DNA of 63,383 nt, counting the filler, from Reclinomonas americana ATCC 50394 (lineage: Eukaryota): assembly GCA_048213135.1 (NCBI GenBank). It is 15 parts of 15 records of this genome, joined end to end, with 100 filler letters (N's around TTAATTAATTAA, not from the genome) between each part and the next. Parts side by side here need not be neighbours in the genome. Positions count along the whole stretch, not along the records: positions 7,444 to 11,584 come from AFZH01022341.1; 14 more parts are not named here. One strand, given 5' to 3'. Positions 1,814-59,170 of this stretch are shown here, piece after piece. Numbering within the stretch: position 1 is the stretch's first letter; every line of letters begins with the position of its first letter. The translations under genes were made by a program, and so were the position numbers. The notes beneath the pieces were generated by a model. It saw only the letters and a program-made list of their open reading frames with translations, was not told the DNA's origin and ran no database searches.

Positions 1814-2755
1814 ATGCCCGTGGTGATTGGCACTGGTGCTGGTGGCCTGGCCAAGGTCACTCTGGTGAACGAGCAAGCAGGCGGTGGCCGTGTGGAAGTG
1901 TACCTGCACGGTGCGACAGTGACAAGTTATCGCCCGCGTGAGGATGCCTCCGAGGTGCTCTTTGTGAGCGCACAGGCCGTGTGGGACGGAGTGAAGCCCA
2001 TCCGCGGTGGCATCCCCGTGAGTTCCACACACTCGCATACAGAGAGACACGCAGAGAGGGAGAGAGCTCACGCACCTCTCTTTCTCTCAGGTCGTTTTCC
2101 CACAATTCGGGCAATCTCTCGACGCGCGACTTGCACAGCACGGCTTTGCGCGCAACTCCACGTGGTCACTGTCGCAGGTGGACGACCTCGCCGACAGTGT
2201 GGTGGCCACGTTTACACTGCAATCAAACGAGGCCACCATGGCAGTGTGGCCGCATGCGTTTTCATTGCAGTACGCCGTCACTCTCGGCCCCGATCGGCTG
2301 ACCACGGCGTTGCAGATTAGCAACACGGGCGCGGAGTCGTTCGTCTTTCAGTGCCTCCTGCACACCTATTATCAGCTCGGAGAAGATGTGGCGCATTTGC
2401 AGGTGCACGGACTGCGCGGCTGTGAGTTCCTCGATCAGCTGAAGCAGCGGGCGCGCGTGACGGACGACGCGGAGAGTGCGGCGATTGCGGAGGAGGTGGA
2501 TCGCATCTACTTGTCGGTGCCGGCTGGCACCGAGCTGCAGGTGGCTCAATCGAGCAGTCGCGTGGCGCTGCAGAAGCGCGTGTTTTGGGATGGCGATCGC
2601 AGTCGGGAGGCGGCTTGCGACGTGGTGCTGTGGAATCCGTGGATCGAAAAGTCGCGGCGCATGGCCGACTTTGGCGACGAAGAGGTGCGCCGGCCAGTCG
2701 TTTGTTGAGCGATGCTGTGGTCTCTTATTATTGTTACTTTGTACAGTACCATCAA
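1814..2755 (+). CDS. Glucose-6-phosphate 1-epimerase (aldose 1-epimerase family), 3' partial
   Basis: Motifs VYLHGATVTSY, IRGGIPVVFPQFG (across intron 2018-2090), QHGFARN, LHTY, VDRIY, VVLWNPW..K...MADFGDEE. Confidence 0.9.
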
Positions 2756-2855: not shown

Positions 2856-2893
2856 TGATTTTCATTCATCATCATTGGTTTTTCCGAGGGCAG

Positions 2894-5827
<2,934 letters not shown>

Positions 5828-6050
5828 GCGCGCATGGTGTGTGTGTGTGGGGAGAGAGAGAGAGGAGGGAGGGAGTGTATATGTGCGCGCGTAGTGCAGT
5901 GTGCGGTGCAGAGTCGATGCGGTTGCGACGGTATTGTCGATTTTGTGAATTGACTGCTCTTCGAATGGCGACTAGCAGCCTCCGCTCTCGCACACACACA
6001 CACGCAACTTCAATTTCGGACTCATCTGTTGATGACATGTGCGGTCGAAG

Positions 6051-6699
6051 ATGGCAGCGATTAAGCGAACGTGCAGTGCCGAGTGTCGAGCGCCACCGGG
6101 GCCGGCTTACTCAACCGAGGTGCCTGTTGGTTGGTTACATACACCAGCCAATGCACCAATCATCCCCCAAAGGCAAAAACCGCCCGTGCGTGTACGTGTG
6201 CACGATCGATCGGAACCGGAGCGCCAGCATGGCAAAGATACTGTAAGTAGCATTCAACTCTGCAGTGCGTGTGGGCGCGTGTACTTGCGTGATTCGCAAG
6301 CTCGGAAATGTGTGCGTTGTGCGTATCTCGACTTTCAGACATTTGTGATGCACACCTGTTTTCCGCTTTCGGAGACGGCGGCGTTCATGAGTTCCAATCG
6401 CCGCCTGTTGCAGTCGGTCCTCGCCTGCAAAAACTCGCAGCCGCCCACATGCATCAGTGAAGTGCGTCCGAGCGCGTGTTGCGCAAGTGTGGCCAGGTGC
6501 GGAGTTCGAAGAACAACAATCGGACAAGCCGTCCACTTGCGCTCCACACACGCAGTCTCCCACTGCGACGCACACCGCGAGCTGCATGGAGAGCGCGCGC
6601 GCACGTGTCTGTGAAAGAAGACAGACAGAGGAAGATGCGCAGCGCATGTTGAATTTGCAGCGGGCCACGGCTTGCACTTGCCGCGCCAGCGGACTTTGA
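6051..6699 (+). CDS. Small Cys-rich hypothetical protein, intron-containing
   Basis: ATG, GT-AG candidates and several CxxC-like pairs; no family recognised and exon structure uncertain. Confidence 0.3.
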
Positions 6700-6902
6700 G
6701 TCGGTGTGTTCCCTTTTTTCTTATTTCGATTGTGCGAGAGCGGAAGCAAACAGTGCAACGCCAAGTCGTGCGTGCGTGGTGCTGTTATCGACCACACGCA
6801 CACACACACACGCACACGCACACACACAGTGTATCACACAGCTGTCTGCGAGTGAGTGCGTGGAGCGATCGCGAGTGAGTGCGTGAGACCGTTTGTCAAT
6901 CG

Positions 6903-7343
6903 ATGAGCGCTTTTCAGCCGCACTCCGCTGCCGCAACAACAGCAGCAGAGGAGGACGATGAGCAGCAACGACTCACTGCCAGAGCTGCACAACAACACCA
7001 AGACGACGACGATGGTCCAAATCCTCTGCTTGCAGCTGCTGCACTACAGAGCCTCCAACAGCAACAGCAACAACAAGAAGGTGGCGATTACCAGCACAGT
7101 GGCAGTGAAGGCGGCATGAGTGGCGAGGACGATGCCGGCGAGGAGTATGACGAGCTGGAGGAGGAGGAGGATGCCGAGTATGACCAATCGGCCACTCAGC
7201 AACATCACCACTTGTCAATGACATCAGCTGATCTGCTGCAGGCGCCTCCTCTGCGTCGGCGGAGTAGTGGTGGTGGTGGTGGTGTGCCTGTGGGAGTGCA
7301 TCATCAAGTGGGAGGCAGGAGGCAGCCGCCAGTGGGATTCAGC
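6903..7343 (+). CDS. N-terminus of an acidic/Gln-rich protein, cut by spacer
   Basis: Open low-complexity coding-like frame (poly-Q, E/D) running into Ns. Confidence 0.45.
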
Positions 7344-7512
7344 NNNNNNNNNNNNNNNNNNNNNNNNNNNNNNNNNNNNNNNNNNNNTTAATTAATTAAN
7401 NNNNNNNNNNNNNNNNNNNNNNNNNNNNNNNNNNNNNNNNNNNTGTGTGTGCGCACGCGCGTTGACTACACAGAGAGCTGTGTGTGAGAGAGCATGAGGC
7501 AAAGAATCACTC

Positions 7513-7886
7513 ACGCGTTTTGTGCCTGGCGAATGAGATCATTTGTCGCTCGCACTTTCTGCACGCGCGCATGCAACCATGTGTGAGGAGAATGCACACT
7601 TGCGTGCGCGTGTGTGTGTGAGTTGAGTGACAGGGGAATGACCAACAGACCTCGCGCTTCTCGCGTTCGGGCGCCGCCTGGATCTCATTGATGCTGCCCT
7701 CAATGTCGTCCTCCAGCTGGAACAGCCGCTTGTCAAACACAGAGACTGCGAGTGGCACACGAGTGAGCAGCAGATATACAAAAGAGTGCGTGAGGGAGAG
7801 ATGGCCAACACGACCGCGCTTTCACACACAAACATACACACGCACACAGAACACACACGCAAATGATGCGCACCTTCGTTCTCCAT
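7513..7886 (-). CDS. 5' part of a helical hypothetical protein (MENE/VFDKRLFQLEDDIEGSINEIQ...)
   Basis: ATG at 7886, canonical GT-AG introns, coding-like exons; head-to-head with the Tom40-like gene. Confidence 0.4.
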
Positions 7887-8006
7887 TACACAAAGGACTG
7901 CGCTTGAATGCACGAGAAACGCGGAGGAGCAGGGGTTACCACTCGTGTTGGTTACCGCCGCCAATCGAGTGGACGGACCGCGAAACCCTCTCCATCACAT
8001 CACAAA

Positions 8007-9393
8007 ATGCCACTGCCGCACCCAGGCAAATACGCTGATCACGCGCATGAGATCAACGGCATCCTGCTCAGTTGCGTTGCTTGCACACCTCATCATCATT
8101 TGCGCGTGTGCCTGTGCGCGTGTGTTTGCACATCGACATGGGCATGCCCTCCCCTCGCCTCTCTCTCTCTCTCTCGCTTGTGCTCACCGTTGTGTGTGTC
8201 GTGCAGCTGAGCATGAGATGATCGATGGCGCGCGAATCCGCTTCATGAAGCCGGTTTGCACTTCCCGTGTGTCTCTCTCTTGTGAGTCTTGGGCATGCTC
8301 TGACCATGTCCATACTCGCCTCACGCAGCTGAGCTTGTCACGCACGCGGTCACTGATCCTCACACACATGATCAACTTGAACTCGCGAATGTCGGCGTAC
8401 CAGTTTGGCGTGCAGACGGAGTGGAAGAACGTTCTGTCACTGAGAGAGAGAGAGAGAGAAGAGGATCGGAATGCATGTGCTGACTGCCCATTCTGCATTG
8501 CAGTTCATGCTGATGGCGCAGCGCGACAGCAGTGGCACATTCACAGCCAATGGGCGGTTCCAGAAGGACCGGGTGCGTTCCACACACGCGTGTGTGTCAG
8601 TGTGGTGGAGCAGAAATGCTGATTTGATTTGGGAGCGCAGTTCGACTCGTTTGCAGTGTACCACTTGGCCAAGGACAGGGGCATGGAGTTCTGGCAGGCG
8701 GGCGTCGATGTGGGATCACAAGCGGATCCGTGGCAGGTGTCGGCGTCGTACATGAAGGGCAGTGTGTCGGCCTCAGTGATGAAGTCGCTCACTCCGCGCT
8801 GGTCGGCCGGTGTCGAAATCAAGCACAAGTTGCGGCGCTCCTGCTTGAGCTGGAGAGGAAGAAGTCCTCGGTGCTCATTGGTTGTTTGCACAGTGCTGCG
8901 TACCTGGGTCGCGCTCAAGATTCGCCTCGTATTCCTGAAACCATTCTCGGAGCGGCTGCTCGCTACGAGACACCACACTGGGTGGCCACGCTGGAGGCCA
9001 CCTCGCAGAAGCGCATTGTGGCCTCGTACACCCGCAAGCTGACATCCAGAGCGTCCATTGGCACGCTTCTGAGGACGGATCTGTCGGATCCGGCATCGTC
9101 GGTGGTGAAGATTGGCTACGACTACCGTCTCGCGCAGCCGGCCTACGGCATCAACTCGCGAGTGCGTGGAACCGTGGAGTTTGGCCGCAAGGCGAATCGC
9201 GTGGCGTGTGCCTTTGAGGAGCGTGTGTCGGAGTCAAACACGTTCATTCTGCACGGCGACCTCGTGTACAGCGATCGCCCACAGTACAAGTTGCGTTGAT
9301 AAGGGAGACGGAGAGGGAGGAGGAGAGAGAGAGATTCTTACGTGCTGTGTTGTGTGGTGCAGGTTCGGCATTGGCCTCAACTACGGCCACTAA
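8007..9393 (+). CDS. Tom40-like mitochondrial porin-family beta-barrel, 6 introns
   Basis: N-terminal LPHPGKY resembles Tom40 LPNPG; spliced C-terminus QYKFGIGLNYGH* is a beta-signal; introns 8071-8206, 8254-8328, 8431-8503, 8573-8640, 8829-8893, 9290-9362 keep the frame. Confidence 0.75.
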
Positions 9394-10201
9394 GCTGCTT
9401 GGTGGGATCAACTGTAGTCGGTGGTGGTGGTGATGGTGTGGCCGCCTTTCTTGATTCTTCGATGGTGTCATTTCGTTGCATTTCTTTGCATCGCATTCAT
9501 TCGCCTCTCTCTTTTTTCTTTGCTCCCTTCCCCTCCCCTCCCTCGCCTGCCTCCTCTCCTTCTCACTCGCTCCGTTCCTTTGCCACCATGTCCTTCCCGT
9601 CCAGCCTCGCACCTTGTGTGCGAGAGAAACAAGTTTGTTCTGGTTGGTGGATGAGTGTGTGGCAGAAGAAGGAGTGGTGAATGTGGGGAAAAAAGGCAAC
9701 CCGGTGGTAGAGGAGGAGGAGGTGGTGGCGGGAGGGAGGGTGACGTGGTGTGTGTGTGTGTGTGCGATGAGTGTGGCATCTGGCTGCACTGTTGATGGGA
9801 GATGGAGAGTGAGGTTGCTAATTTGGTGGTGGTGGTGGTGGTGGTGGGCGGCACAGCTCACAGTGTGGCGGGTGTGTGACGCACGATGTTTCTGTTTACC
9901 TCTCTTATTTTTTCTTCCGAGTTAACGCAATAGATTGTTGGTCTCGTCTTTTTCTCTCTCCAGTTTTTTTTTGCGTCGTCGTTGTTTCTCCGCCACCCGT
10001 TGTGTGCGTGTATGTCGTGTGTGTGTGTGTGGTGGTCGAGTTGGGCCTGTGATAATGTAGCTAGAAGTGCATGCGTTTGCCATATTATGATGCTCGTTTA
10101 CAATGTATTCACGACGCCAGTGTAGTGGTGGTACAACAAAAAACAGTGGACTGCCACAACATATTTAAAAAACACACGCAGTAGCAGGAGCCGCCCACCG
10201 C

Positions 10202-11513
10202 TTATTCGTCGTCAGCGGCCTCGTTGTCGGTCACCGTTGCTTCCGCTGCGTCGGCGTTGGCCTTGGAGGCGTCGGGCTTCACTGGCGGGAAGTTGTAGAC
10301 GAGAATGTCGCGCCACGCCGAAACGATGCGGTTCACCGTCTGCTGCAGCACCTCCTTCTCGCCCTTGCGCAGGCGCACAGCCGAGCGCACATTCGGCGAC
10401 AGAGTGCGCTTCAGACGCTGCTCGTCCTCCTCAATCGACGTCTCGTACTCGCGGAACATGGTCTCGGCGGCCGCCAGCACCGTGCGGAACATGGTCAGCT
10501 CGTTGTCGAGCGACACGCCCACCGAGGTATCGTTCGTCGCCGCCAGGCGCACCAGATCCTGACCCTTGGCCAGCTGCACAACAGAGAGGGCGATGTCAGC
10601 GCAGCTGGCACACACTTTTTGTGAGGAAAGACAGAAACACACACACACCTGAATGCGCAGCGCAGTGAACAGCTCGTCGGGGCTCTCGGTGAGCGACAGG
10701 AAGAAGAAGCCGTCGGTGTTGATCTTGCGCAGCTCCAGAATGGCCTTCTTCAGCTTGACGTCCTCGGCCTCGTCGTTCAGACGAGTGTTGATGAGCACGA
10801 CATCGTACGAGGGATCGTCGAGCACGTAGCCGTTCGACAGCAGCAGGTCGAGGTTGGTCTTCTTGCCCGTGTTGACAAACACCTGCTCGCCCTTGGCAAA
10901 GTCGGCGCCCGCCAGCACGTCAAACGAGCGCGTCTCGTTGTTGAACTTGAAATCGGTCGGCACGTTGCCGTGGTTGATCATGTCCAGGCCGGGGATGAGG
11001 CACACTACCGAGCCGTCGGCCAGGTTGAGCGTGAACGAGCGCGCCGCCACAGTCGACACGGCCCACTTGAAATCGTCAAAGGTGAACTTGTCCTTGGGGA
11101 AGACCTCCGCGTACGTGCTATTGCCCTGCACAAACTCGGAGAGCGACTCGTACGTCGACTGCATCTGCTCCAGACGCGACTTGGCGAGCGACACAATGCT
11201 CGATCCCTTCAGCTCCTTCATCTCGGCCTCGGAAAAGTACAACGGCGTGTTGTACGTCGTCGGCAACGCATTCAACCAACCACTGAACTTGGACTCGGCG
11301 TTGTACTTTTCCGCCAGCACCGCCAGCCCGAGCAAGAGTTGATCGTTGACCTGTCCGATTTCACACACATGAGTGACTCTCAAGAGGCGGTCCCATGCAA
11401 GCAATACGACGCACCTCTGGGTACGCGTCGACGAGGAACTTGAGCGTGACAGTACGCGCCACGCGGCTGTTGAGGAAGGTGTCCACGGGGATCGACATCA
11501 TCAACTCGCCAGT
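10202..11513 (-). CDS. SET-domain protein with Rubisco-LSMT substrate-binding domain (SETD3/LSMT-like), 5' partial
   Basis: FKWAVSTVAARSF, LIPGLDMINH, GEQVFVN.G..TN..LLL..GY, YETSIEEDE, A.RLR.GEK.VL. Confidence 0.88.
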
Positions 11514-11708
11514 CTGCACAGGAGAGAGAGGCACAGAGTGAGAGTCGCCATGCCACGTGGCATGTCTTGCAACACACACACACANNNNNNNNNNNNNNNN
11601 NNNNNNNNNNNNNNNNNNNNNNNNNNNNTTAATTAATTAANNNNNNNNNNNNNNNNNNNNNNNNNNNNNNNNNNNNNNNNNNNNCGCTAACGCACGCCAT
11701 TTCAATAG

Positions 11709-14024
11709 GTTCTCGAGTACTTGGTGGAGGTGCTGCCGGTGGAGGTGTTTTTCGACGCCGACAATGATGGATTCTTGCCGGTGGACTCGGACGTGTTCCG
11801 ACACTTGCTGGCCGACCCCGATTCGGTGGTGCATCGGTACAAGGATGCCAGTTGCGTGCACTTTCTGTCAGTCTCACCACTGATTTCCATCCTTGTTCAC
11901 CTCTGCCGTCTCTCGCGCAACGCAGTTGATCAGTACAGCAAGACTCGCTTGTCGGCCGATCACGATCGCTCGGGGTCGACGCATACCTCGTCGCGACACT
12001 CGCGCGACGTGGAGCGCACGGGTGGTGAGATTGACTGGAGCAAGCTGCGGTTTGCGCAGATCAAGCATGTTGCGTTGTGGGGGAAGGGGGAGGGGGAGGA
12101 GGAGGAGGAGGGAGGGGGGAGGGAAGGAAGGAGGAGGGAGCGGGCGGAAGAGCTTCTATGTTTTTCTCAGCGTAGAGAGATGAGCACATCGTGGCGCTGT
12201 CTCCTGCGTGAGAGAGAGCGCAAGGGTAAAGGAGAGATAGATGGAGACTTTGCATGTTCTAATGACAGATTCACGCACATCGTGTTGCTGTCTCCTGTGT
12301 GAAGAGAGAGTGCAAGGGAGAAGGAGAGACAAATGGAGACGTTGCGTATTCTTGCAGAAGAGCATGTTTGCGAATGACGGATTCACGCATATCGTACTGC
12401 TTTCTCCTGTGTGAAGAGACTGTGTGTGTGAGAGAGAGAGAGAGCAAAAAAACCTTGCATGTTTTCTCTGCGTTGTAAATATGAGCGTGCATCCGGTTGG
12501 CACCGATCATGTTGCTGTCTTGTTTCTCAAGAGAGAGAGAGAGAAACTTTGCATGTGTTTCTCGCGTTGTGATATGTGCGCGCTTCCGAGTCACTGGTGC
12601 TGACGTTTACGCTGTCTCGTCGACGCAGTTGCACCACACCAAGGGCGAGACGCAGATGATGGGCTTCTCGGCGGCGAAGCTGCTCTTCATGTGTGTTATC
12701 ATGTGCGGCTTTGTCAACCCGGTGGTGTACTGGATCATGTTCTTCTTTGGCCTGTACCTGCTGACGCGCCTGGCGCGACGCACCGGCGAGGGCCGCAACA
12801 TGCTCTTCTTCTCCTACATGGCCACCTACTACATCCCCGTGATGATTACCTATTTGTGGTGGTTTGGATGTTGCGTCAAGTTGCTTCCTTTTTTTTGTAT
12901 TTGACCGCCCAGGCTCACCGGCTTTCTTGCACAGTGCACGACTTTGTGTCGTTCCTGTTTGTCACGTGCTGGATCATCAGTTGGCCCAACCTCATCCGCA
13001 CGCACATGTCGGATCCGGGTTTCATCTTTGCGAAACCGGAGCACTTGCGCGAGATCTTTTCGTGTGTGGAAAGGAAGATTCCGATCAACTGGAAGAAGGT
13101 GTGCCGCACATGCATGATGCTCCGGCCGCTGCGTAGCAAGCATTGCTCGGTGCGCAACTGCTGCATCGCGCGCTTTGATCACTACTGCGGGTGGACGGTG
13201 AATGCGATTGGAGCAGGTGAGTCTCGTCGTCGTGTTACTGTTGTTTTGTGAGCTTTGCATTTCATCTCTCTCTCTCTTCTCAATGCGCAGGCAACCACCG
13301 CACGTTCTTGCTCTTCTCCATTGGCTTGATGTCGGCGTTCTTGCTGCACATGTACAAGATGGTGACGTTCATCTACCACCACAAGCTCATCACGGAGGGA
13401 CTGTGGGAGATTGCATTCCAGTCGCACACGGCCATGTTCAACTACATCACGGCCGAGATCTTCCTCGCCGGCTACCTCATCATCCTCAACGTGCAGCAGC
13501 TGATGATGGTCGGTCGCAACTTGACGGTCAACGAGATGATGAATGCCGGCAGATACGCCCACTTGCGCGACCCCACCACCGGCGCCTTCCACAACCCGTT
13601 CAACATGGGTTTCTGGGGCAACATGCGGGTGCGTTCCGTGAGCATAGCAGAATGAGAACCATTCGATTCGCAGCGATGACTGATTCTCATTGTACGCAGG
13701 AATTCTGGATGGGGCCGTCGCCGCCACTCATCTATGATGGCAGTGTCAGCATTCAGGGCACCATGGCCATGACTCCGACGGCTGGCGGTGGTTGCGAGCA
13801 CGGCTGCGAGCATGACCACGGCGGTGGTCGCGGTCACGCTGGCCACGGCCACTCGCACGGTCACCACCAGCACGGGCACGGACACGGTCACGCGCATGGC
13901 GGACACGGTGGACACCATCACGGCGGGCACTCGCACGGGCATGGTGGCCACGGAGGCCATGGTGACGGGCCGCCAACGGTCGACGTGGAGGAGCAGCAGC
14001 AATTGTACCAGATGCTGTCAAGAG
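11709..14024 (+). CDS. DHHC (DHYC) palmitoyltransferase with His/Gly-rich C-terminal region, partial
   Basis: SDPGF, [54 protein letters not shown]. Confidence 0.92.
12185..12570 (+). repeat. Degenerate tandem repeat (3-4 units of about 90-110 nt) inside a long intron
   Basis: Recurring CACATCGT(G/A)..GCTGTCTCCTG.GTGA(A)GAGAG...TTGCATGT at about 12185, 12276, 12387, 12506. Confidence 0.7.
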
Positions 14025-14188
14025 GTTTGTGTGTGTTCGAAAACCGCATGCATATCTTGTGCACCGTTTTTTTATTTCAGCANNNNNNNNNNNNNNNNNN
14101 NNNNNNNNNNNNNNNNNNNNNNNNNNTTAATTAATTAANNNNNNNNNNNNNNNNNNNNNNNNNNNNNNNNNNNNNNNNNNNNCTACTG

Positions 14189-15193: not shown

Positions 15194-15452
15194 GTGTGTG
15201 TTCGATAAGTAGTGCTTGCTGTTGTTTAGAGAATTTGTGGTTGTTTGTATGTTTGTGTTTCCTTTCGTCAACTATTATTTGCTGCAATGCGCGCGCGTGT
15301 GTGTGTATGCCGCGCCACCGTGAGGGTTTCTTGAAAAAGAAGAAAATGAAAATCCATCCGTGAAGAATCGATATCCGAATCTTTTCGTCGTTGCACGCAA
15401 AGCCCTCTCCTCATCCCCCCTCCATTCTCACTCCCTCACACACACTTAAAAC

Positions 15453-16266
15453 ATGCGATTCGTTGTTGGTTCGTCAATCACGACACGCAGCGATCGCGAT
15501 GATTCGTTTTCTGACTATTGTTTTTTCTTTGCTCACTGTCCACTCTCGCAGGCGTCGACGGAAGCGACAGTAGCATGCAAGCTGCCGCGCGAGCAGCGCA
15601 ACTGGCCAAGCCCGGCGATCTGATCCTGGTTTGCACAACACGCAAGCGAGCGAGAGAAAAGATGCGATCTATTGAATTGCTTTTTTTGCAGCTGCTCGGC
15701 GCAGTGCCCACGCCGTTCAAACTCGCCGTTGCGTGCATAGCATACTCTCACTCGCTGTCTCTGTCACTGTCTGCCTCACGCGCATCTGCGCAGATGGTGA
15801 CGGAGGACGGCGACGCGGTCTTGTCTGACGAGCTCGAGGATCCGGACCCGGAGGCGGTGGCGAGCACGGCTGCGGTGCTGTCCAAGGCGGCCTCGCAGGT
15901 GACGCGAGCACTGCCGGAGGCGCACGGTGTGCTGGTGCAGGAGCGTGTAATGGCCGGCGATCCGCGGTATGCGATTCTGGAGGCGGTCGATGAAGTCGGC
16001 GCCGACTTTGTGGGTGAGCTCTCGCGATCGCTCTGGTGTGAAAGCCTGCTGCTGACGTGTGGTGTGGTGTGCAGTGGTGGGCACGCAGAGCAAGGGCTTC
16101 ATCAAGCGCATGATTGTCGGCTCGTTGCGTGCACGTGCTGTGCCTTCACTTCCCCTCCTGTCCTTACTGTGTACTCGTTGCGTGTAGCACGGCGGATTAT
16201 CTTGTGCATCACGCGCCGTGCGCTGTCATTGTGGTGCGCGATGAGAAAACAGCCGGCAGTGAGTGA
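15453..16266 (+). CDS. Universal stress protein (UspA family), 5 introns
   Basis: Spliced product MRFVVGVDGS...GDPRYAILEAVDEVGADFVVVGTQSKGFIKRMIVGSTADYLVHHAPCAVIVVR. Confidence 0.92.
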
Positions 16267-16298
16267 ATGAAGTCATCCGCGCACACTTCATTACCGCG

Positions 16299-19200
16299 TT
16301 ACACGCGAATGGTGATCGACTTGACTTCGGTGTACAGCTGCGCAGGTGTGCACGGTTCAGTTCACATGTCGACATCAGCAGGGTGCTTGTGATGCATGCG
16401 CACGCACCTGCAAGGCGTACTCGCCGCAATCGCGTCCGTAGCCAGACTCGCGGTACCCTGCACCACCCACTGTCAGCATCAATCGTGGACGACAGACTTG
16501 CTCACTCTCATGCATACCTCCAAACGGCTGCTCGGCCCAGGAGGCATTGTAGCAGTTGACCCACTGTGCGGCGTACGTGTCAGTAGGCTGTTGTCTTTTC
16601 ATCGCCGCGCATTTAGTCGGCAACTCACCACCGAGCCGGCCTGAGCATGCAGCGGAGCGCACGAATGAGAAAATATCTACAGGGCAGCAAGGCACACACA
16701 CGCACACACAAGTCACATGCACCTTCAAGTTGTCGAGCAACGAAAATACTGCGCAGAGTGCACCAGTGAGGAAACAACACCTTGCATGACTGGTAAGGGG
16801 GAAAGCACAAGCACACCTCGTGTCACATCCTGCGTTTCGGTAGGAATAAAGAAAACAAACGTAATGAGCATGGAAACAATGCACCAAGCACACACACATA
16901 GATGCATACCTGTGTGAACACGGCCGCTGCAAGCCTGCACCAAATTGATTAGTTCAACTTCCATACACACTGCCGAACCACCTCTCACAAGCAACTGACC
17001 CAAAGTTGGAGGTGTTGGCGCGGAGAAGAGCCTCCTCGGGCTCATGGAAGCGGAACACAGACATTACGGGTCCTGCACGCCCGACAGAGTGAGTGAACAG
17101 GCCATCCACCAAGCAAGCGCACGCCGATTCAAATACCGAAAATCTCCTCCTGCAAACACCGCACCATTAGTCACCGCCAGCCACGCAAACTCATCGCCGA
17201 CGCACGTACCTTGGCGATGGACATGGAGTCGTTGACATTGGTGAACACGGTGGGTGCCACAAAGTAACCGCGGTCACCGATCCGATCGCCACCACACGCC
17301 AGTGTCGCACCCTCGGCTTTACCCTGCGTCGAGTGAGGCCACGGAGATGACGCAATGTTCGACGCACGACTACAGTCTCACCTTCTGCACGTAGCCGAGC
17401 ACGCGGTCCAGTTGTTCCTGAGAAATCAAGGGGCCTTGCTCGACCGACTCCTGGAAAGGGTCGCCGACCTTGGCACGACGCTGTCGCGCCAGCTCCACCG
17501 TCATCTCCACAAACTGGTCGTACACCTTGTCATGCACAAAGATGCGCGTGCCGGCAGAGCAGCTGCGGTGCACGTTGCGTGTGTCAAGCACCAACCGGCG
17601 AAGCGGCGACATGGGAGGGGGCGAAGCACGCAACACTTGACCGGCGTTGTAGAATGTGGCCTCCTGAATGACGCGTGCAGTGCGCTTGAGGTTGGCGTCG
17701 TCAAACACAATCACCGGACTCTGCGGCATGCAGTGAGCCACGCAGCACGGCGACGGGTGGCGACGCGAGTGCGAGATGCGAGATACTCACCTTGCCACCG
17801 AGCTCCAGAGAACAGCGCTTCAGGTTGGACATTACGGCGGCTGCAATTATTGGGAGACGGTCATGCTGCTTATTGAAGAAACTCGTAGCCACACCGAAAA
17901 GGCGACTGTACCTTGCTGCACAAGTCGACCAACTTCCAAACTCCCTGTCGCACACACACACACGTCATGTCACTTGTAGTCGACACGCACACACGTCAAT
18001 GATGGCATGCACACCAGTGAATGCGACCTTGTCAATATCCATGTGGCGGGAGATCATGGCGCCGGTGGCTCCGTCACCTGCGTGCACGTGCGCCCGTGAA
18101 CAAAAGGGCAACGACAGCAATTTCACGCCATCACACACGCACCAGGGAGGACGTTGAATACGCCCGGCGGCACGCCGGCCTTCTCGCACAGCTCCGCAAA
18201 GGCAAGAGCAGTCAACGGCGTTTGCTCAGCTGGCCTGCACGTGATATGAGGTCATGCTGAGTTGCCATCCACGTGCGAATGCACGCGGCGGTAAAGACGG
18301 AACTTGAGCACTGCAACGAAGCACGCATGTGAGAGACTGTGGGTGGCCAGAGATCGAGGAACAAACATGGTGCGACACACCTACAGTGCAACCGATGGAG
18401 AGGGCCGGGGCCACCTTCCACGACAACTGAGAGCGGGTGCGAAATGAGCAGCGACACCCCGCACGGCCTCACACACAGTGGCGCACACGCAACCATGTTG
18501 AGCTGTGGTAAGGTGGAGCACGAATCGTTTGCGTTGTGAGTCTGACAAGGGGTGTGTTGTTTCCATCATATGCAGGTGTTTTTCACGCACAGGGAAGTTC
18601 CTGCGCACACAATTAAGTTGCTGTCAGACATGTGAAGAAAGAGAGTGAATACGTGTGTGACAATACCATGGGATGATGGCTCCTGATCATCCTCATGAAA
18701 ACAGCGAAGTGAGCGACCGGCCGCTGATGATCAACCACCGTGCGACAATCAACTCTCACCGACGACTGCGTGCACGACACAGTCAGTCGCCACGCAACAC
18801 ACAGTCGCACTCAAATGACGCACGCACACACCTCCCACGGGCTCGTGATACGTAAAGCTCTTGTACTGCACAACAACAATGCATTAATGAGCGCGACATC
18901 CACACCACGTAGCCGCTCACCAACGCGTCGTTCGCTCACCCCCGGACCTGCACACCAATGTCAGCCGACGCGGGATTCTCCAGAGGCATACCGCACGCAC
19001 GCAACGAGTCTCAATGACCTTTCCGTTGACCTTGCCCGCCCTGACAACCTGCAATTCAGTACTGCACTTCTCCGCGCACTCGTGAACGCACACACCCGCT
19101 CACCATCTTCACCCCCCATACACGATCCATTGACAGAATCGTCAGTGGAATGTGAAGACCAGACACACACACATGCATACACACAAACAACACACCCAGC

Positions 19201-19859
19201 ATCTGCAGGCACGGCAATGAGAAAGAAAGGAGGAGGAGGGAGGATCGGAAAAATACACGCAACAATAGCGAAAGTGTTCCGCAGTCAGCGGCACATCACC
19301 CGAGCGCGTGTCGGCCACCGGCTGCACGCGCACTCATTTGAGCAACTCTGCTACTCACAACAATGCACAGACAGCAGTGTGTGCCTTTCCACCATCCAGC
19401 GACTCGAGCGTGGCCAGCCACTCGGCATTCTCCTCAATGAGATCCGCCAGACGCGTCAGAATGCGACACCGATCAAGTGCCGGCGTGCGTCGCCACCTGC
19501 TCTCTCCCACCCGCATTAGGAGAGAGATGGACTGGTGACACACACACACACACAAGAGACATGTGCGCAACGGATCGAAAGCGGTGCGAGCTGCACGCAC
19601 GGCATCATCGACATCCTCTTGCCCGGCTTGCGACACCTGCACATGAGCGTGTGTGTGCGATGGAGTCGTGCGCGCGAAAACACGTGCCCCCTCTCCACTC
19701 GCGATCACGCACGTCACAGATGACGCTCTCGGTGGCGGGGTTGAGAGTGGGAAAGGTGCGGCCGGTGCGTGCGGCGCGGAACTCGCCGTTGATGTAGACT
19801 CCGGTGGAGCGTGGCAGACGCACACGCGACGCCGCGGCCGAGGAGGAGAACCAACGCAT
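16299..19859 (-). CDS. Aldehyde dehydrogenase (ALDH1/2-like), about 30 introns, many microexons
   Basis: Spliced motifs [91 protein letters not shown]; start codon may lie further upstream. Confidence 0.95.
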
Positions 19860-20985: not shown

Positions 20986-21085
20986 NNNNNNNNNNNNNNN
21001 NNNNNNNNNNNNNNNNNNNNNNNNNNNNNTTAATTAATTAANNNNNNNNNNNNNNNNNNNNNNNNNNNNNNNNNNNNNNNNNNNN

Positions 21086-51167: not shown

Positions 51168-51214
<47 letters not shown>
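51168..51214. repeat. (GT)n microsatellite at a contig end
   Basis: Perfect GT run. Confidence 0.95.
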
Positions 51215-51261: not shown

Positions 51262-53498
51262 GTCAATGTGGCGCCGGCAAGTTTGGCATTGTCGCAGAAT
51301 CCGGCATCATTCCCAGTGCCCAATCCTGCAGCGGCAGCGGGCACCACAGTTGGAACGTTCTCAGCGTCTGATATCAACAGCAGTGAGTCATTCACCTACC
51401 GCCTCGTCGACGGCATCGGCGGTGAGCAGAACTGTTTGTTCGTGATCGATGGCAATCGGCTGGAGGTGGGGGCAGAGGGTCTTTCACCGACTTTGACGAG
51501 TCCGCTTAGCGTGCGAGTGCAAGTGACGGACTCGCGAGGACTGTCGTCGGAGTTCGTGATCCCTGTGGCGAGTTGCGTGACGTGTACTATCGTTTTTTGG
51601 CTGTGGTCTGAGGCAACAAGCTGATATGACTTAACAATGTTTCCGCACACGCAGTTGACAATGCACCAACGGACATCAGCCTTAGTTCGACGCAGTACAC
51701 GCCTGGTGGTGTGGCCGGAGAGACTGTGGCAACCATCACCGTGGTGGACGATACGGCTGTGGCGCATGTGGTGACGCTGGATTCACAGTCTGTGAATGGC
51801 GCGTTTGTTGTGCACAATAACAACGAACTGCGACGCGGCGCTGTGGTTCCTGTTGGTGATGTGCAAGTGGTATTGACCGCACGGGATGCGGCTCGCGCGT
51901 CGCTGTTTGTGACCAAGACATTCACCTTGTCAGAAAGTTGCGAGCAGCTAGCGCCTGCAGTCGTGCGTGCGTGTGGGACGATGTTATGCTGATTTGTGGT
52001 GACGCAGGAAATGTCGCACCGACGTCAATTTCATTGAGTCAGAGCCCTTCAACGCTGCAGGTGCCATCGAATGGTGCAGCGGCAGCGACTGTGGTGGGCG
52101 TGCTTTCGGCTGCAGATGCCAATTCTTCGGAGACGTTTAGCTTCCGGTTGGTGGATGGCGACGGAAGCACACACAACGCATTCTTCGTGGTGGCCAACGG
52201 CAACGAGCTGCGAGTGTCCAGTGCTGGTGTGCCGGCGGCGCAGACTGGACCACTGAGTGTGCGTGTGGGAGTTACAGACAGCGGCAACAACAAGTTTGAG
52301 CAAGCGGTGGCAGTGGCCAGTTGCGTTTTTTCTAGCTGCGCAGTAATGTGAGTGATTGTCTGCGCTTACGCGGTGTATCGGCCAGTCACGAATGCACCGC
52401 TGTCGGTGAGTCTGTCGGTGACGACGTATCCGCCGGCTGCAACGTCGGGTACAGTGGTGGGCACATTCACTGTGGCCGTGGACGCGGGATCTGCGACGGT
52501 GCCGGTTCTGACAGTGGTCACACAATCGCCGGCTAATGCCTTCAGCATCGTCGACAAGCAGTTGAAGATTGGAGCAGTGCCACCGTCTGGCACTGTCACG
52601 GTGACTGTGCGGGCTCAAGATCCGAATGTTGCGAGCTTGTATCGTGACGTTGTGTTCACGCTTGGTGAAAGTTGCGAAACTACATAGCAGAGGGAGGAAG
52701 CGGAATGCTGCTGGTGTGCAAAATACTCATGGGTGAATAATGCACAGCCGACGTTGCACCAAGCGACATTGCGTTGACACTGGCGACACCGCCGCCGTTG
52801 CGACTGCCGGCAGCGGCGTCGACGGTGATTGGAACGCTGAGCAGTGTGGATGTGAACAGTGGCGAAGCGTTCACATACGAACTGGTGTACGGTGCGTGTG
52901 GCAGTGATATGTGCATGTGGCGGCCAGTCCATGGGCTTACGCGTTGCCGTTTTTTTCTCTTGGTGTTTTGTTTCTACCAGGTGTGGGCGCGGACAACAAC
53001 TCGCTGTTTGCCATCGACGGCGACAAACTGATGGCGCGCGGTGCGGGTATTCCATCGCCGCAAGTGGCGCCTGTGAGTATTCGGGTGCGTAGCACTGATC
53101 TCGGAGGCCTCCGCATCGAGAAGTCATTCGTCGTCAGCAGTTGCGTGCATCAGTGAGGTGCACTGTGGGGAGGAGGCGATGAAAAATGACACACTTGATC
53201 GCAGCGAATTCGGTGCCGACGAGCATTGCGTTGACATCCAACACGTATCCGGCTGATGGTAGCGCTGTGGGTGGCACGCTGATTGGCCAGGTATCGGCGA
53301 CTGACGTGGACCAGAATGAGTCGTTCACATTCAGTCTGGTGGCCACTGGAGACAGCAGTCTGTTTGAGATTGACAACAGCGACGAGCTGCGGATTGCGTC
53401 GTCGGTGACAACGCCGCTGACAGGCAGCAAGAGCATCCAAGTGCAGGTTGTTGACTCGGCTCTGAACTCGCTGACCGTGTCATTCTCGATTGTGGTCG
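51262..53498 (+). CDS. Cadherin-like repeat protein (eukaryotic, partial), at least 6 repeats
   Basis: N/D-x-AP...VGTLS..D.NS.E.FTY.LV.G.G...N..F.IDGN.L...VRV..TD repeats; phase-1 introns at repeat boundaries. Confidence 0.8.
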
Positions 53499-53877
53499 GT
53501 GAGTGTCATTACCGTTGCTGATGTGGGCGGATCAACTCTTGCGCAAGGTTAACTCACTGACGAGTCGTTGTGTGCGGTGACCACAGCNNNNNNNNNNNNN
53601 NNNNNNNNNNNNNNNNNNNNNNNNNNNNNNNTTAATTAATTAANNNNNNNNNNNNNNNNNNNNNNNNNNNNNNNNNNNNNNNNNNNNGATGCCGGCGGCG
53701 TTGCCTGCTGTCAACGGCGTGCCCTCTTCCTCCTCCTCATCTTCCTGCTCTCTGATGCGTAAGAGCTCCACGCGTCAGCTCATGGTTCGTACATGTCGTC
53801 ACCGGCTCTCTCCTCTGTGACTCTCTCTCACACATTGCAACAATGTCTGTTTCTGCTATCGATGGCGTGCGCAGGCA

Positions 53878-56221
53878 ATGAGTGGAGGGCACGAAGCACA
53901 CCAGGCGGGTCTGTGGAGCGTGTTGCCGGAAGAGCTGTGGACGATTGTGTTGTCGCACTTCAGCGCGGGTGATTTGTATCGACAGCAGACCACGTGCAAG
54001 ACTTGGTGAGATGGACGATGTGCGCGTTCACGTGTGAGACCGTGAGAGCTCATCTACGCGTTGCTCGTGCGCTCTAGGTATCGCCTGCTGGTGAAGTCGG
54101 TGACGGGGTTCAGTGCAAAGAGCGCCGCTGAGATCTCTGCGGCTCTCCAATCATTGCGGTGTTTGCGCAGCTTGCACAGTTGCGATTGCGCTCTCTCGCT
54201 CTCTGCCTTGTGTATGTGTGTGCGCGGGTGTTTCTGACACGCAGGGTGTGACCTCGCAGTTGGAGTTCCGTATGGGGAGGCAGTGGATGATTTGTGCGCG
54301 GCTCTGTCGAGTGGGCGATCGGGGCTCCGCGACTTGTCATTTACGGCGCCGTGGTGGCCTCGTTGCGTGCACAGAGAGTGCTGTGAAGCAGCCTTAGTCA
54401 GCGTCCTTATTGCCTCTCTCTCTCTCTCTTTAGAATACATGGAGCGAGATCCAGTTTCGTCGCACAAGATGACGCACATGAAGCAGCTGTGTGAGGCCGT
54501 CGGCAGCAATCCCAAGTCGTTGCTGCGCTCCCTGACGATCTCTGGTAAGCGCGCATAGGGTGGGGAAGTGTTGATCTACTGGTTGTTGCTGACTCATTCC
54601 GCCACAGTGCCACTTGGGTCGGACTCTGCGTGCGACGTTTTGGGCTCGTTGTTGGCCTCCAACACCTCGCTTGTGACTGTTGATATCTCTTCTTCGTCCA
54701 CCGCATTCCCGGTGCGTCTGGCGCCCCTCGTACGGTCGCTGGTGAAGAATTCCACGTTACGGCACCTGCGGTTATGCGGATATTCTCTCGATGCTGAGGC
54801 GACTGCTGCCATGGCGACGTACCTGGCGACCACGACGTCACTGGAGACGCTGGATTTGTCGCACTCGCTGTCTGGCGAAGTGGCGGGCGGCGGTCTCACT
54901 GCACTTCTTCCGGGCCTTGCGGCAAATCGATCGTTGCGAGTCTTCCGCGCGTGCCGCGCCGATATGCGAAGCCGTGCCGCAGTTGATGCGGTCCTTGGTC
55001 CGCACTCCATGTTGCATACTCTTGACTTGGAAGGTGAGCGCGTTTATGCTTGGTGATCTTGTGTGTCACCCCTCTCTCAATGCCCTGTATAGAGAGTCTT
55101 CTCTCCACCGAGTTTGCTGTTGCGCTCGGGCGGGATCTCCGTGTCAACCACACTCTGCATCGGCTGTTGCTCGACAAAACACACAACGGAATTCCTTCGT
55201 CTCGCGGGTCGTGGCCTTTTGATGTTGGTATCTCGTCCATTACCGCAGCCCTTGTCGAGAATACAACCGTGCGAGAAGTGTCGCTGCTTAGTTGCGCAGC
55301 CAGTCGCTCTGCCAGCCAACATTCATGTTGTCGAAAACACATGCTGATGCGCGTGGTGCACAGGTACCCCATTCACTTCATCTGTACTCGCGGAGGTGGC
55401 TCAGCATGTGTGCCGTTCAACGAGTCTTCGTACTCTGCGGATTTCGACTTGCTACCGCAACAGATTCGAAACGGCGTGGGTCGACTTTGCGCAACAGCTG
55501 GCCGCAGGATCACGCCTTTCGGAGCTGTCGTTTGAGTTCCAGTCACTGAAGTCCGTGGCGGCTGCTCCAGTTCCAGACGCCCCTGTTGCTCTGTCGCTGC
55601 TCAACCATATTGGCCAACTGAGGACGTTGACCAACCTTGACTTGTCTGGTTTGTTGTTTTCCCCCTCTTACATCGGCGTGATGTTCTCTGGTGCTCACTG
55701 GCGGGTAATGCAGAGACGGCGCTTACCGGGCAGCTGGCCACTCACCTGCAGTCCCTTGTGACGCAATGTGGCTCCTTGGAGTCACTCCGCCTTGCGAGAA
55801 ATACTTTCACGGACGCGGATGCGCTCGCTGTCGCTGATGTGCTGTCCTTGGAGTCCTCATCGCTTCGCACCCTCGATCTGGAAGGCGTGCAGTTCTCGTC
55901 GATGGATGCACTCGGCGCAGTGCTCGATGCGGCAGAGCGTGCCCCGCATCTGCGAAATCTGATCCTTCGCCACGTTTTCGTGTCACAGTCGTTGGGTGAC
56001 ACCACACGTTTTCGTTGCTTTTCGTATGAGTTTGTTTGATTCTGATGGTTTTTCCGGGGAGCAGATCACCGTTGGTGCGACTTCCTGGCCCACGCCGAGC
56101 AGCGCTTCCCGCTCGGCCTGTGTTCTTCTGGGACCTGGTGGCAGACCGGCTCGGGTTGCTGTTGAGTCGAGGTGTCTCATTACGTCGCGTTGATCTTCGT
56201 GGCATCCGGATATCCGCCCCA
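53878..56221 (+). CDS. F-box / RNI-like LRR protein, 3' partial
   Basis: LPEELW..VLS.....DL.....CKTW F-box; repeats such as N.SL..LDLS, SLETLDLS, LTNLDLS, SLESLRLARN. Confidence 0.8.
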
Positions 56222-56907: not shown

Positions 56908-59170
56908 TCAGATAGTAATATCTGCGTATCGCCGCTCCTTTTGCCGCTTCGCCCGGATGTACGCGATTGTGTTCTCGTAGAAGACCCGTGTCGCCGCACT
57001 TTCTTCCGACGGCGCATCGGCGTCTGCTGAGATGTTGGTGTTGACCAGGTCCAGCAGCTTGGTCAGGAACACGCTCGTCACCTACGACACGAACAGACCG
57101 CAAGCCTCGAATATTCAGAAGCAAACTCAAAAAAATATGAGGTCTTCAGAGTCGCACAACCACTCGCCTTTTCGTTTTCCTGGTCAAAGTGGTACAAATA
57201 CTTGTTGAGAATCTCCACAAACAGCGGGAACTGATGGGCCAACATGCAGTGGTCGGCCAGCTTGAGACTGCGTTGCAGGCATTCCAGCACACGGCCGTCG
57301 TTCATGTGCGACTCGACTTGTGGCTTCCAAAACAGGTGAGAGCAGGTGTATGCCGCGCGACACTGATCCTGCTTCTTGAGCAGCTTGACGCTGTACTGGC
57401 ACGTCTTGGTCGACAGCGTGTCATAGTTCTCCTCCGAGAGATTCACCATACGGCCCAGTGTGCCTGAGGAGTTGTTTGCCGCGTAGGCGAATGTGAGACA
57501 GACTTGTCGAAAGCACAACAACGGGGACACGGAGAGAGACGCACCGACAAAGAGCTGCAGAAGCGCCAGCTGGGTCTTCGAGTCGCTGATTTCCTCTTCA
57601 TAGATGAGGAACGACTGAGCCATGAACTCGTAAGCCAGCTTTTCCATGTGACACGCGTCAGCCACCTGAGCGCACTGCAGGTGTAGCCGCAGCGCCAGCT
57701 CGGCACGCTCGTGGGCGAGGACCTCGAGAATCTCGAGAACGTACTGGAAGATCTTGTCGAGCGATTCTGCGCAGTATACATGCATGCATTTTGTGTTAGG
57801 AATGATTCAACACTATTGGCGGACAGGAAACGAAACGTTGATCGGGGGCGCGTGCATCATCTTCTCCCTGTTGGCCGTTAGTATCGGCTGCACCGCTGCC
57901 TGAAGCAGCACCTTCGGTGTTGCTTCCACTGATGACAGCGTACGTGCGAGAGGCGAGACGCAGGTAGGCGAAAACGAGCGGCGTCAGGGTGAACACCAGT
58001 CGGCGCGTGCCTCCACGACCAAAGGTGCGTCTTGCTGATGCCAAAATCGCAAAATACACGGCAGGGTCCGATGAGTTGAACAAGTTGACCAGTCGCGCCA
58101 CCACGTTTTGCTCCTCCTCGAATTCCTACAGCGGACGTCCAGTGGTGTTAGCCGAGTACGCTAGACACGCGCGAAATCCCCCGCCTCACACACTTGACTG
58201 TATATGCATACCTCATCCATTTCCTCCTCTGGTGGCTGGTCCGGTTCGGAGCGCACCAATGGCCTGATGTACTCGAAAAAGCGATTCACTTCCTCCACGC
58301 TAGCCACTGGATGGCCGTACTTGAGCGCGTTCTTTGCGAATTCGAGGGCCACCTCCTTTCGACTGGCATACGGCAACGTCTCGAACAGAGGCAGGTAGTT
58401 TTGGAGCAGCAGCACCTGCAGAGGGAGCGCTCACAGTCAACGCACTGCGCGCAGATCACCAGAACCTCCGCATTCGTGACGAGAAAGACAAACCTTCAAG
58501 ACATTTTTGTAGGCCACCACCGGAATGGAAAGAATCTGCACCACCAGTCGCACAAAAGGTGTCGATTGTGCGCTGCGTAGACGAGTGCGAATGATGAGTG
58601 TGTCAGACAGCCAAGTCAGTGAACTGGGAACACACCGATCGGGGTTCTTCTTGAGCTCGGCAACGCACAACGCCATGGTGTTGTCCACGTATTCCACGCG
58701 GTCCGGGTAGCAGCGAAGGGCGAGATTCAGCAGCGACACCAGCAAGCTCAGTGTTCCCTTGCTGTCGATCGCCAGCGAGGATCTCTGCAGAGTACATGCA
58801 CATGGGCGGTGAATCGTAGGCTGCAGAATAGGCCAATGACATGGAGACCCATCTCAATGCAAACCTGGATGAGCTGGTTGACGAAATGAGAAAAGATCTT
58901 GAAAATGTCAACCGACTCCGCAAAGAGTGCACGGTTCTCCTCGGCGTAGTTCGCCAGTCGGTCCATGAGGGAGATGGCGATGTTCTGCAGGTCGACACCT
59001 GGCTGGAGTCCGAGGCACGTCTGCATGAGGTGGTCCAGAGTTGCCAGGTGGAACTCGTCGGGGAACACTTGAATGATGGACTCCATGAGATACTGCTGCG
59101 CAATCTGATCCTTGTGAGACAACACCTGCTCCGTCAGCCTGCCCAAGAGACTCTGTGCGACGACGGCTGC
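56908..59170 (-). CDS. VPS35: Retromer subunit VPS35, central and C-terminal exons
   Basis: KDQIAQQYLMESIIQVFPDEFHL, EEQNVVARLV, YEFM.Q.F.IYEEEISDSK.Q, KLLKKQDQCRA, RVLECLQRSLK, LFVEILNKYLY. Confidence 0.96.

Follow-up and report, generated by a model that had tools for sequence, protein, structure and literature searches.

The choice of the scissile phosphate relative to the U1 binding site has been studied mainly in rare human sites and in engineered yeast mutants, and at canonical donors (5' splice sites) a G at the last exon base (position -1) and a G at the fifth intron base (+5) show a compensatory dependence. Shifted-register human 5' splice sites were reportedly described by Roca and Krainer in 2009, and bulged-nucleotide registers of U1 are said to have been described by Roca et al. 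in 2012. Here we analysed a stretch of 63,383 nt from the Reclinomonas americana ATCC 50394 assembly GCA_048213135.1 (the whole stretch being called the window) and describe in its introns, beside canonical donors, a second donor form, typically GTTGCGT, whose motif is slid by one base into the intron and which follows nearly all exons that do not end in G. The shifted register itself has been established experimentally for rare human donors, in which CA|GU (the bar marking the exon-intron boundary) is read as CAG and all U1 pairs are moved by one (Tan et al. 2016, PMC4856993; review PMC9311317), and a human shifted-register test oligonucleotide is listed at about -6.5 kcal/mol (PMC4856993), as far as the accessible parts of these papers go. 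Andalucia godoyi, a Discoba relative, likewise has GT-AG introns and differs in being intron-poor, with 134 introns in 864 genes, a mean length of 151 bp and GT-AG borders throughout (PMC7050145), whereas one ALDH gene in the window holds 30 introns of 58-89 nt; the accessible part of that genome paper mentions no donor classes. In the accessible literature on jakobid introns, the GTTGCG hexamer and the shifted register (a tunicate paper included, most subscription journals lying outside this scope), no genome-wide slid donor class is described. Shifted-register donors are known as rare human sites, and what is new here is their use by about one third of introns.

Seventy-nine introns were curated blind to the last exon base, 52 validated by homology or open reading frame (ORF) and 27 placed by frame continuity. 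A donor was called slid when it read GT and carried T at +3 and G at +6, with A, C or T at +5. By this definition 27 donors are slid, 51 are canonical of the GTNNG type and one belongs to a GC-AG intron; the slid donors comprise 24 GTTGCG and three GTTNNGT variants (C|GTTCTGT at 8431, C|GTTTCGT at 57836 and A|GTTCCGT at 18303). A G at -1 precedes one of the 27 slid donors compared with 48 of the 51 canonical ones (Fisher 2.7e-16, all 79 introns). The contrast holds in the 52 validated introns only (1/14 vs 34/37; Fisher 1.5e-8), in the second tier only (5e-8), with three ambiguous introns assigned contrary to the rule (2.8e-14), and with five paralogous slid introns, copies of a single repeat-boundary intron, merged to one (1.4e-14). 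A dynamic-programming gene finder blind to the donor type placed nine GTTGCG donors, none of them after G. Seen from the exon, 26 of 29 exons not ending in G are followed by slid donors, and the 50 exons ending in G lead into 48 canonical GT donors, one GC-AG donor and one slid donor, the ALDH donor at 18493. The canonical donors without -1G are three (C|GTGAGT at 2018, C|GTGCGT at 19712 and T|GTGCGT at 18590); all three carry one of the best hexamers, GTGAGT or GTGCGT.

The existence of two donor classes tied to the -1 base is thereby confirmed, and it is strong for this sample of 79 introns. A preliminary description of the same DNA had counted 23 GTTGCG donors, 22 of them after A, C or T; our count is 24, with 23 after A, C or T, and its single case after G (18493) is borne out. 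It had further placed the three variants after A or C, stated that exons ending in G nearly always carry canonical donors (48/50 here) and named as exceptions precisely the three sites given above, all of which we recovered. Its example of the rule within one locus also holds. This is the Tom40-like gene (ATG at 8007, stop at 9393, plus strand; weak Porin_3 match, largest ORF), which after removal of six introns is open over 299 codons and combines A|GTTGCG three times with C|GTTCTG, G|GTTTGC and G|GTGCGT:

8071..8206, plus strand: Tom40-like intron 1, slid, TCA|GTTGCGT, 136 nt; open frame
8254..8328, plus strand: Tom40-like intron 2, canonical, CCG|GTTTGC, 75 nt; open frame
8431..8503, plus strand: Tom40-like intron 3, slid variant, AAC|GTTCTGT, 73 nt; open frame
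8573..8640, plus strand: Tom40-like intron 4, canonical, CGG|GTGCGT, 68 nt; open frame
8829..8893, plus strand: Tom40-like intron 5, slid, CAA|GTTGCGG, 65 nt; open frame and donor-blind gene finder
9290..9362, plus strand: Tom40-like intron 6, slid, CAA|GTTGCGT, 73 nt; open frame

The slide of the donor motif by one base is well supported. The commonest canonical hexamer is GTGCGT (10/51) and the commonest slid heptamer GTTGCGT (17/27), the core TGCGT(G) starting at +3 in slid and at +2 in canonical donors. A T stands at +7 in 20 of the 27 slid donors, compared with 17 of 51 at canonical +7 (p 8e-4) and 31 of 51 at canonical +6 (p 0.32), and the bases at slid -1 (A13 C7 G1 T6) are distributed like those at canonical -2 (A21 C12 G7 T11; chi2 p 0.58). 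These three agreements bear out the earlier suggestion that the motif slides by one base. When slid donors were scored under the canonical profile at the positions outside the class definition (-3..-1, +4, +5 and +7..+9), their log-likelihood was -495.1 in the same register, -260.5 when shifted by one base and -297.8 under the exon background; the respective values were -110.5, -98.1 and -112.5 for +7..+9 only, and -103.5, -33.0 and -39.6 for -1 only. While G at +6 in 27 of 27 slid donors follows from the class definition, GCG is near-invariant across +4..+6 (24, 26 and 27 of 27), and G at +4, so frequent in slid donors (24/27), occurs in none of the 51 canonical ones. The mark of the class is G at +6 instead of +5, and T at +3 alone is insufficient: the eight donors reading GTTTGT, GTTTGC or GTTTGG all keep G at +5 and all follow G, so that of the two marks proposed beforehand, +3T and +6G, only the latter stands by itself. 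Otherwise the introns of both classes are alike in their branch-like CT(G/C)A(C/T) motif and CAG acceptors, in length (58-83 nt for slid introns except two outliers) and in the complementarity between their 5' and 3' parts, for which no difference between slid and canonical introns was seen.

The homology tier was built with tblastn and our own protein-to-DNA spliced aligner (GT/GC...AG borders, flat intron penalty), ambiguous stretches being inspected by eye, and yielded 6 introns in MCM3, 10 in Vps35 and 29 in ALDH; the open-frame part of the validated set adds the 6 introns of the Tom40-like gene and one aldose-epimerase intron across which Pfam positions join. The second tier rests on frame continuity judged by eye and on domain logic (DHHC 5, cadherin-like repeat 7, F-box/LRR 7 and Usp 4), its last 4 introns being those on which donor-blind and donor-aware gene-finder runs agree. 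Competing donors in MCM3 (4453/4468/4476) and ALDH (19384/19372), a candidate near 14027 at a contig end and all other ab initio predictions were excluded before counting, and in the DHHC gene 13629 was chosen over 13638. The ab initio runs, donor-blind and donor-aware, served as leads only; in them genes were fused, spurious long introns proposed, (GT)n runs read as donors and micro-exons overlooked. Every spliced model is open: the ALDH model with 30 introns runs from ATG to stop over 493 aa, with 50% identity to P0331 in one high-scoring segment pair of 481 residues, MCM3 shows 65% identity over 596 residues, Vps35 63% over 574 and 67% over 166 residues, the Tom40-like frame has the length given above, and the F-box/LRR model covers 559 codons from ATG to stop.

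Cleavage before GT is, judged by frames and homology, well supported for both classes. Once the acceptor AG is set, the donor follows from frame and homology, and the sole other in-frame option would move both cuts one base downstream, which leaves an identical mRNA if the next exon begins with G and is mostly uninformative otherwise. At 19263 this option was rejected: it gives RYCAG, as opposed to the conserved ALDH motif RYYAG restored by the GT-AG cut. The preliminary description had suggested that cleavage still occurs before GT, and the open frames, the homolog-colinear products and RYYAG at 19263 agree with it. At the phase-1 boundaries of a cadherin-like gene, five reading A|GTTGCG and one G|GTGAGT, class and last exon base therefore switch together while the boundary stays fixed. 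The slid donors outside the Tom40-like gene, with the canonical exceptions and the sixth cadherin-like boundary, are as follows:

2991..3065, plus strand: MCM3 intron, slid, GAT|GTTGCGT; tblastn and spliced alignment to P0001
3163..3244, plus strand: MCM3 intron, slid, CAA|GTTGCGA; tblastn and spliced alignment to P0001
59533..59604, minus strand: Vps35 intron, slid, TCT|GTTGCGT; tblastn to P0121, NIVPRL / YLLVTVG joined exactly
57767..57836, minus strand: Vps35 intron, slid variant, AAC|GTTTCGT; tblastn, the alternative donor 57911 (AAG|GTGCTG) losing about 24 residues
19497..19571, minus strand: ALDH intron, slid, TCC|GTTGCGC; 2/5 queries, 2 others picking a GC donor 5 nt away
19203..19263, minus strand: ALDH intron, slid, ATT|GTTGCGT; 4/5 queries, RYYAG restored by the GT-AG cut
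18948..19005, minus strand: ALDH intron, slid, CTC|GTTGCGT; by eye and open model, followed by an 8-nt exon
18427..18493, minus strand: ALDH intron, slid, ATG|GTTGCGT, unique among slid donors in following G; 3/5 queries, preceded by a 9-nt exon
18235..18303, minus strand: ALDH intron, slid variant, CAA|GTTCCGT; 5/5 queries
17563..17634, minus strand: ALDH intron, slid, AGT|GTTGCGT; 5/5 queries
19637..19712, minus strand: ALDH intron, exception, canonical after C, GAC|GTGCGT; 4/5 queries
18503..18590, minus strand: ALDH intron, exception, canonical after T, CCT|GTGCGT; spliced alignment and by eye
2018..2138, plus strand: aldose epimerase intron, exception, canonical after C, CCC|GTGAGT; Pfam profile positions join across
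11851..11925, plus strand: DHHC-gene intron, slid, CCA|GTTGCGT; frame continuity
12069..12628, plus strand: DHHC-gene intron, slid, CAT|GTTGCGT, length 560 nt, containing repeats; frame continuity
12870..12934, plus strand: DHHC-gene intron, slid, GAT|GTTGCGT; donor-blind gene finder and frame continuity
15728..15793, plus strand: Usp-gene intron, slid, GCC|GTTGCGT; frame continuity, Usp Pfam match
16124..16187, plus strand: Usp-gene intron, slid, CTC|GTTGCGT; donor-blind gene finder and frame continuity
51572..51654, plus strand: cadherin-like repeat-boundary intron, phase 1, slid, CGA|GTTGCGT; donor-blind gene finder and frame/domain logic
51937..52007, plus strand: cadherin-like repeat-boundary intron, slid, AAA|GTTGCGA; frame/domain logic
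52320..52385, plus strand: cadherin-like repeat-boundary intron, slid, CCA|GTTGCGT; donor-blind gene finder and frame/domain logic
52671..52747, plus strand: cadherin-like repeat-boundary intron, slid, AAA|GTTGCGA; frame/domain logic
53140..53204, plus strand: cadherin-like repeat-boundary intron, slid, GCA|GTTGCGT; donor-blind gene finder and frame/domain logic
53499..53586, plus strand: cadherin-like repeat boundary, phase 1, canonical, TCG|GTGAGT; frame/domain logic
54179..54259, plus strand: F-box/LRR intron, slid, ACA|GTTGCGA; 559-aa open frame
54362..54433, plus strand: F-box/LRR intron, slid, CTC|GTTGCGT; 559-aa open frame
55291..55363, plus strand: F-box/LRR intron, slid, TTA|GTTGCGC; 559-aa open frame

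Compared with human shifted-register sites, as far as these are covered in the accessible parts of the sources cited above, the slid donors are alike in that GU is kept and cleaved, +1G replaces -1G, the last exon bases are CA or A instead of G, and G and U stand at +6 and +7. They differ in that the human sites are rare and atypical with a long AAGUAU helix, whereas here a fixed GTTGCGT consensus marks 27 of 79 introns, the predicted pairing with a canonical U1 is weak (-1.5 kcal/mol) and the two forms alternate near-deterministically with the -1 base. Bulged U1 registers share with slid donors the one extra nucleotide between GU and the downstream pairing block and differ in that their exon end stays paired through -1G, which is missing in 26 of the 27 slid cases. 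The compensation between -1G and +5G likewise ties the last exon base statistically to intron positions; it strengthens one and the same register, whereas here the whole motif slides and does so near-absolutely (26 of 29 non-G exons). With about one in three donors displaced by one base, such a genome would offer a natural large test set for cut-site choice, in which the last exon base dictates the form almost fully. The slid form is also one route by which an extremely intron-dense genome can escape exons ending in G, and gene finders trained on a single donor profile would mis-model such genomes (our own donor-aware finder recovered 35/52).

We propose, with a probability of roughly 60%, that two forms of 5' splice site operate here and that the slid form is read one base deeper while the cut still falls before GT. 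The canonical form, G|GT(G/A/T)NG(T/C), accounts for about two thirds of donors and almost always needs -1G; the slid form, N|GTTGCGT, in about one third, is the downstream core TGCGT set one base into the intron. In it the intron +1G occupies the place of the canonical exon -1G, and the last exon base no longer has to be G. The data above show both classes, their near-exclusive tie to the -1 base, an offset of one base at each informative position and a cut before GT in either class. Beyond this, the RNAs that recognise the donor would pair one base deeper in slid introns, U1 early and probably the ACAGA box of U6 later, and GU itself would place the cut, uncoupling the recognition register from the scissile bond. 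The near-invariance of GTTGCGT, which tolerates almost no other variation, could then arise because the mismatch opposite U1 C8 costs pairing, and slid donors after G may be rare because the canonical form, which is under much weaker constraint, wins out when -1 is G. Donor positions +4..+6 are the pairing partner of the U6 ACAGA box; GCG at these positions cannot pair with it, so that for U6, too, a place one base deeper or a tolerated bulge would be needed, and CGU at slid +5..+7 pairs with U6 like CGU at +4..+6 of GTGCGT.

A more far-reaching version is tentative, and we hold it to be less likely than not: in one third of introns the helices of U1 and then of U6 would lie one base deeper than the scissile bond, with GU routinely placing the cut, possibly enabled by a reprogrammed U1 5' end (nt 5-6 reading GC, or C8A). 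If true, no genome before this one would have separated the recognition register from the cut site as a regular mode governed by the exon sequence, and the coding constraint of -1G would be relaxed in genes split into micro-exons.

Several observations weigh against the reading of slid donors one base deeper by the usual RNAs. Our pairing model uses the canonical U1 5' end AUACUUACCUG (also ACUUACCUG), which may not be that of the host. Counts of Watson-Crick and GU pairs to this end favoured the shifted register in 11 of the 14 validated slid donors (mean 6.2 vs 4.5), and 31 of 37 canonical donors had more pairs in the canonical register, whereas ViennaRNA duplexes averaged only -1.47 kcal/mol for slid compared with -7.06 kcal/mol for canonical donors, and no more than 8 of 27 slid donors had their unconstrained optimum in the shifted register, nearly all canonical donors being found in the canonical register. 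The two computations of U1 pairing in both registers, which the preliminary description had called for, hence point different ways, the pair counts towards the shift and the duplex optimum away from it. The predicted shifted helix is interrupted in two places, one facing U1 C8 and the other at the invariant +5 C, which would lie unpaired against a pseudouridine position of U1, and a U1 of canonical sequence is thermodynamically doubtful as the reader of slid donors; of the earlier shifted-register inference, the offset and the GT cleavage stand, and U1 is a candidate reader.

The sequence context and the sample add to these reservations. In the eukaryotic contigs GTTGCG occurs 62 times on both strands, as compared with 38.7 +/- 5.9 expected under a first-order Markov model (maximum 54 in 100 simulations), the excess equalling the 24 donors and the 38 non-donor copies equalling the expectation; the non-eukaryotic contigs hold 17 copies. 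A G precedes 1 of the 24 donor copies and 5 of the 38 non-donor copies, which is no significant depletion (p 0.39). The proof extends to the contrast between slid and canonical donors and not to an active avoidance of G. An A at -1 is found in 13 of 27 slid donors, a number inflated by the 5 paralogs, and in 9 of 38 non-donor copies, so that no clear excess is seen; the preference for A, and with it the earlier notion that A|G is read as AG, is only suggestive once the paralogs are collapsed. Furthermore, the cut sites were deduced from reading frames, homologs and the GT-AG rule, and the sample is limited to 79 introns in 32.5 kb, 27 of which have no supporting homolog. Of the 52 validated introns only 35 were also found by the donor-aware ab initio finder, for which reason unannotated introns remain.

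The best-surviving alternative, to which we give a minor share of the probability, keeps the same one-base offset and assigns its reading to a diverged or second U1 (nt 5-6 pairing with GC, or C8A matching A|GUUGCGU perfectly), so that the two donor classes would mirror two recognisers or one reprogrammed recogniser. The poor pairing of slid donors with canonical U1 (-1.47 kcal/mol) is what this would predict, and the near-invariant GCG at +4..+6 asks for a partner that reads GCG. Hypothetical U1 11-mers with GC at nt 5-6 reach -7.07 kcal/mol and the shifted register in 24/27 slid donors, and with C8A in addition -10.94 kcal/mol and 27/27; these ends were written from the consensus and are therefore an illustration and a prediction without evidential weight. 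Canonical donors, however, vary freely at +3 and +4, unlike what a strict GC-reading U1 would require, and to our knowledge the U1 5' end is nearly invariant across eukaryotes. The finding in any case makes a sharp and cheap prediction about the U1 and U6 sequences of this organism. Among small nuclear RNA (snRNA) genes, an Rfam search of the window at the gathering threshold returned none, its only match being an ALIL pseudoknot in a bacterial contig, and the E-value mode on the eukaryotic contigs gave three chance-level matches and no snRNA; U1 (RF00003) had no match in 151 genomes of the family of G001, the bacterial genome closest to the window, and the control genomes gave none either, which makes this search uninformative.

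It is unlikely that GTTGCGT is an independent motif bound by a protein or other factor without any register logic, the exon end being unconstrained and canonical donors needing -1G for separate reasons. The exon positions -3..-1 of slid donors are indeed described by the background (-116.2) nearly as well as by the shifted profile (-109.6), and -1G is no rarer than before non-donor GTTGCG; on this account, however, the match to GTGCGT (10/51) displaced by one base through +7..+9 would be a coincidence, as would the retention of +6G and +7T in all of GTTCTGT, GTTTCGT and GTTCCGT. Less credible by a clear step is a bulged-nucleotide register, in which +1G and +2U pair with U1 C8 and A7, +3U bulges and GCGU pairs as +3..+6. 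GT-T-GCGT is indeed GTGCGT plus one T, and bulge registers are documented in human donors (PMC9311317, PMC4856993, in their accessible parts), but this register keeps -1 opposite U1 C9 and is disfavoured because it predicts -1G, which is observed in 1 of 27 slid donors, the log-likelihood at -1 being -103.5 in the same compared with -33.0 in the shifted register.

A recently spread, introner-like intron family whose insertion site would explain the non-G flank was rejected and ranks marginally lower still: the hexamer is identical in 24 introns and five of them lie at paralogous positions of one repeat gene, but all-vs-all blastn of the 79 introns gave no alignable intron bodies, only 15 short matches in both classes, mostly low-complexity-looking and of 13-26 nt bar one of 45 nt (80% identity) that joins two slid introns from their first bases with no common intron body, and slid introns resemble canonical ones in length and are scattered in conserved genes. 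That the classes are an artefact of the gene models, the true cut lying one base off or GTTGCG sites not being donors, is hardly credible: micro-exons do make ab initio models unreliable (35/52 recovered) and cuts were placed from frames and homology, but 14 slid donors lie in genes with open spliced products, 10 of them in ALDH, MCM3 and Vps35, which also aligned end to end, and 4 in the Tom40-like gene with its open frame of 299 codons, RYYAG opposes RYCAG at 19263, and the hexamer excess equals the donor count. U12-type introns have the donor RTATCCTT and the branch site TCCTTAAC; they were rejected for the slid class, whose donors read GTTGCGT and which shares its branch-like motif and CAG acceptors with the canonical class.

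With respect to the source of the introns, the window consists of 15 contigs separated by spacers of the form N44-TTAATTAATTAA-N44 (e.g., 2756-2855, 7344-7443, 20986-21085 and 51068-51167). Nine contigs with short-intron genes, 32,501 nt in total with a G+C content of 54-62%, are eukaryotic:

1-2755, 2856-7343, 7444-11584, 11685-14082, 14183-20985, 51168-53587, 53688-56221, 56322-59239 and 59340-63383: eukaryotic contigs

The remaining six (21086-51067; G+C 60-69%) look bacterial. The available genome closest to the window, G001 (6 Mb), has 36% of sampled words in common with it, and its matches are restricted to the non-eukaryotic contigs; the contig of the Tom40-like gene gave no match to it. 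Because of protein matches of MCM3 and Vps35, the eukaryotic contigs are assigned to what is probably the intron-dense nuclear genome of a jakobid-like (Discoba) protist: the top named relative of an MCM3 exon is MCM3 of the jakobid Seculamonas ecuadoriensis (71% identity), and Heterolobosea are among the top named matches of a Vps35 exon. A scan of genome contigs with the MCM3 exon returned a single archaeal MCM, and a scan of metagenome contigs with an LSMT-like exon returned zero matches. Vps35 spans the contigs 56322-59239 and 59340-60000 (minus strand; profile positions 94-156 and 218-726), which therefore adjoin in the genome.

No gene model covers 5828-7343, 9400-10200, 14183-15250 and 62420-63383, and extra GTTGCG copies in these stretches, e.g., at 6008 (minus strand, after A), 14800 (after A) and 5922 (after G), could be unannotated donors. 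The cadherin-like gene (51271-53586, plus strand) is built of tandem domains with a weak Pfam Cadherin match and a phase-1 intron at each domain boundary. The ALDH gene (16299-19859, minus strand) packs its 30 introns of 58-89 nt into 493 codons, and its micro-exons of 3, 6, 7, 7, 8, 9, 10 and 16 nt rebuild conserved motifs, e.g., RYYAGWA. Two homology-supported introns, 4778-4845 (plus strand) and 19107-19195 (minus strand), have AAG at their 3' end in place of CAG or TAG, and directly after the second of them an exon of 3 nt, ATG, supplies the missing W of AGWA. The GC-AG intron (AAG|GCGAGT) lies in Vps35 at 57082-57167 (minus strand), where homology places it exactly, and a possible second GC donor in ALDH, AAG|GCACAC at 19384, competes with GCT|GTCTGT at 19372.

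Inside the unusually long DHHC intron (12069-12628, plus strand) lie a G/A-rich tract (12079-12144) and, at 12184-12352, 1.8 copies of a 92-nt repeat unit; a non-donor GTTGCG at 12341 falls within one of these copies. The ALIL pseudoknot (Rfam RF01497, 111.8 bits) lies at 35032-35148 on the minus strand of a bacterial-looking contig. Some contig ends are (GT)n runs (51168-51215 and near 11583), which suggests assembly breaks at microsatellites.

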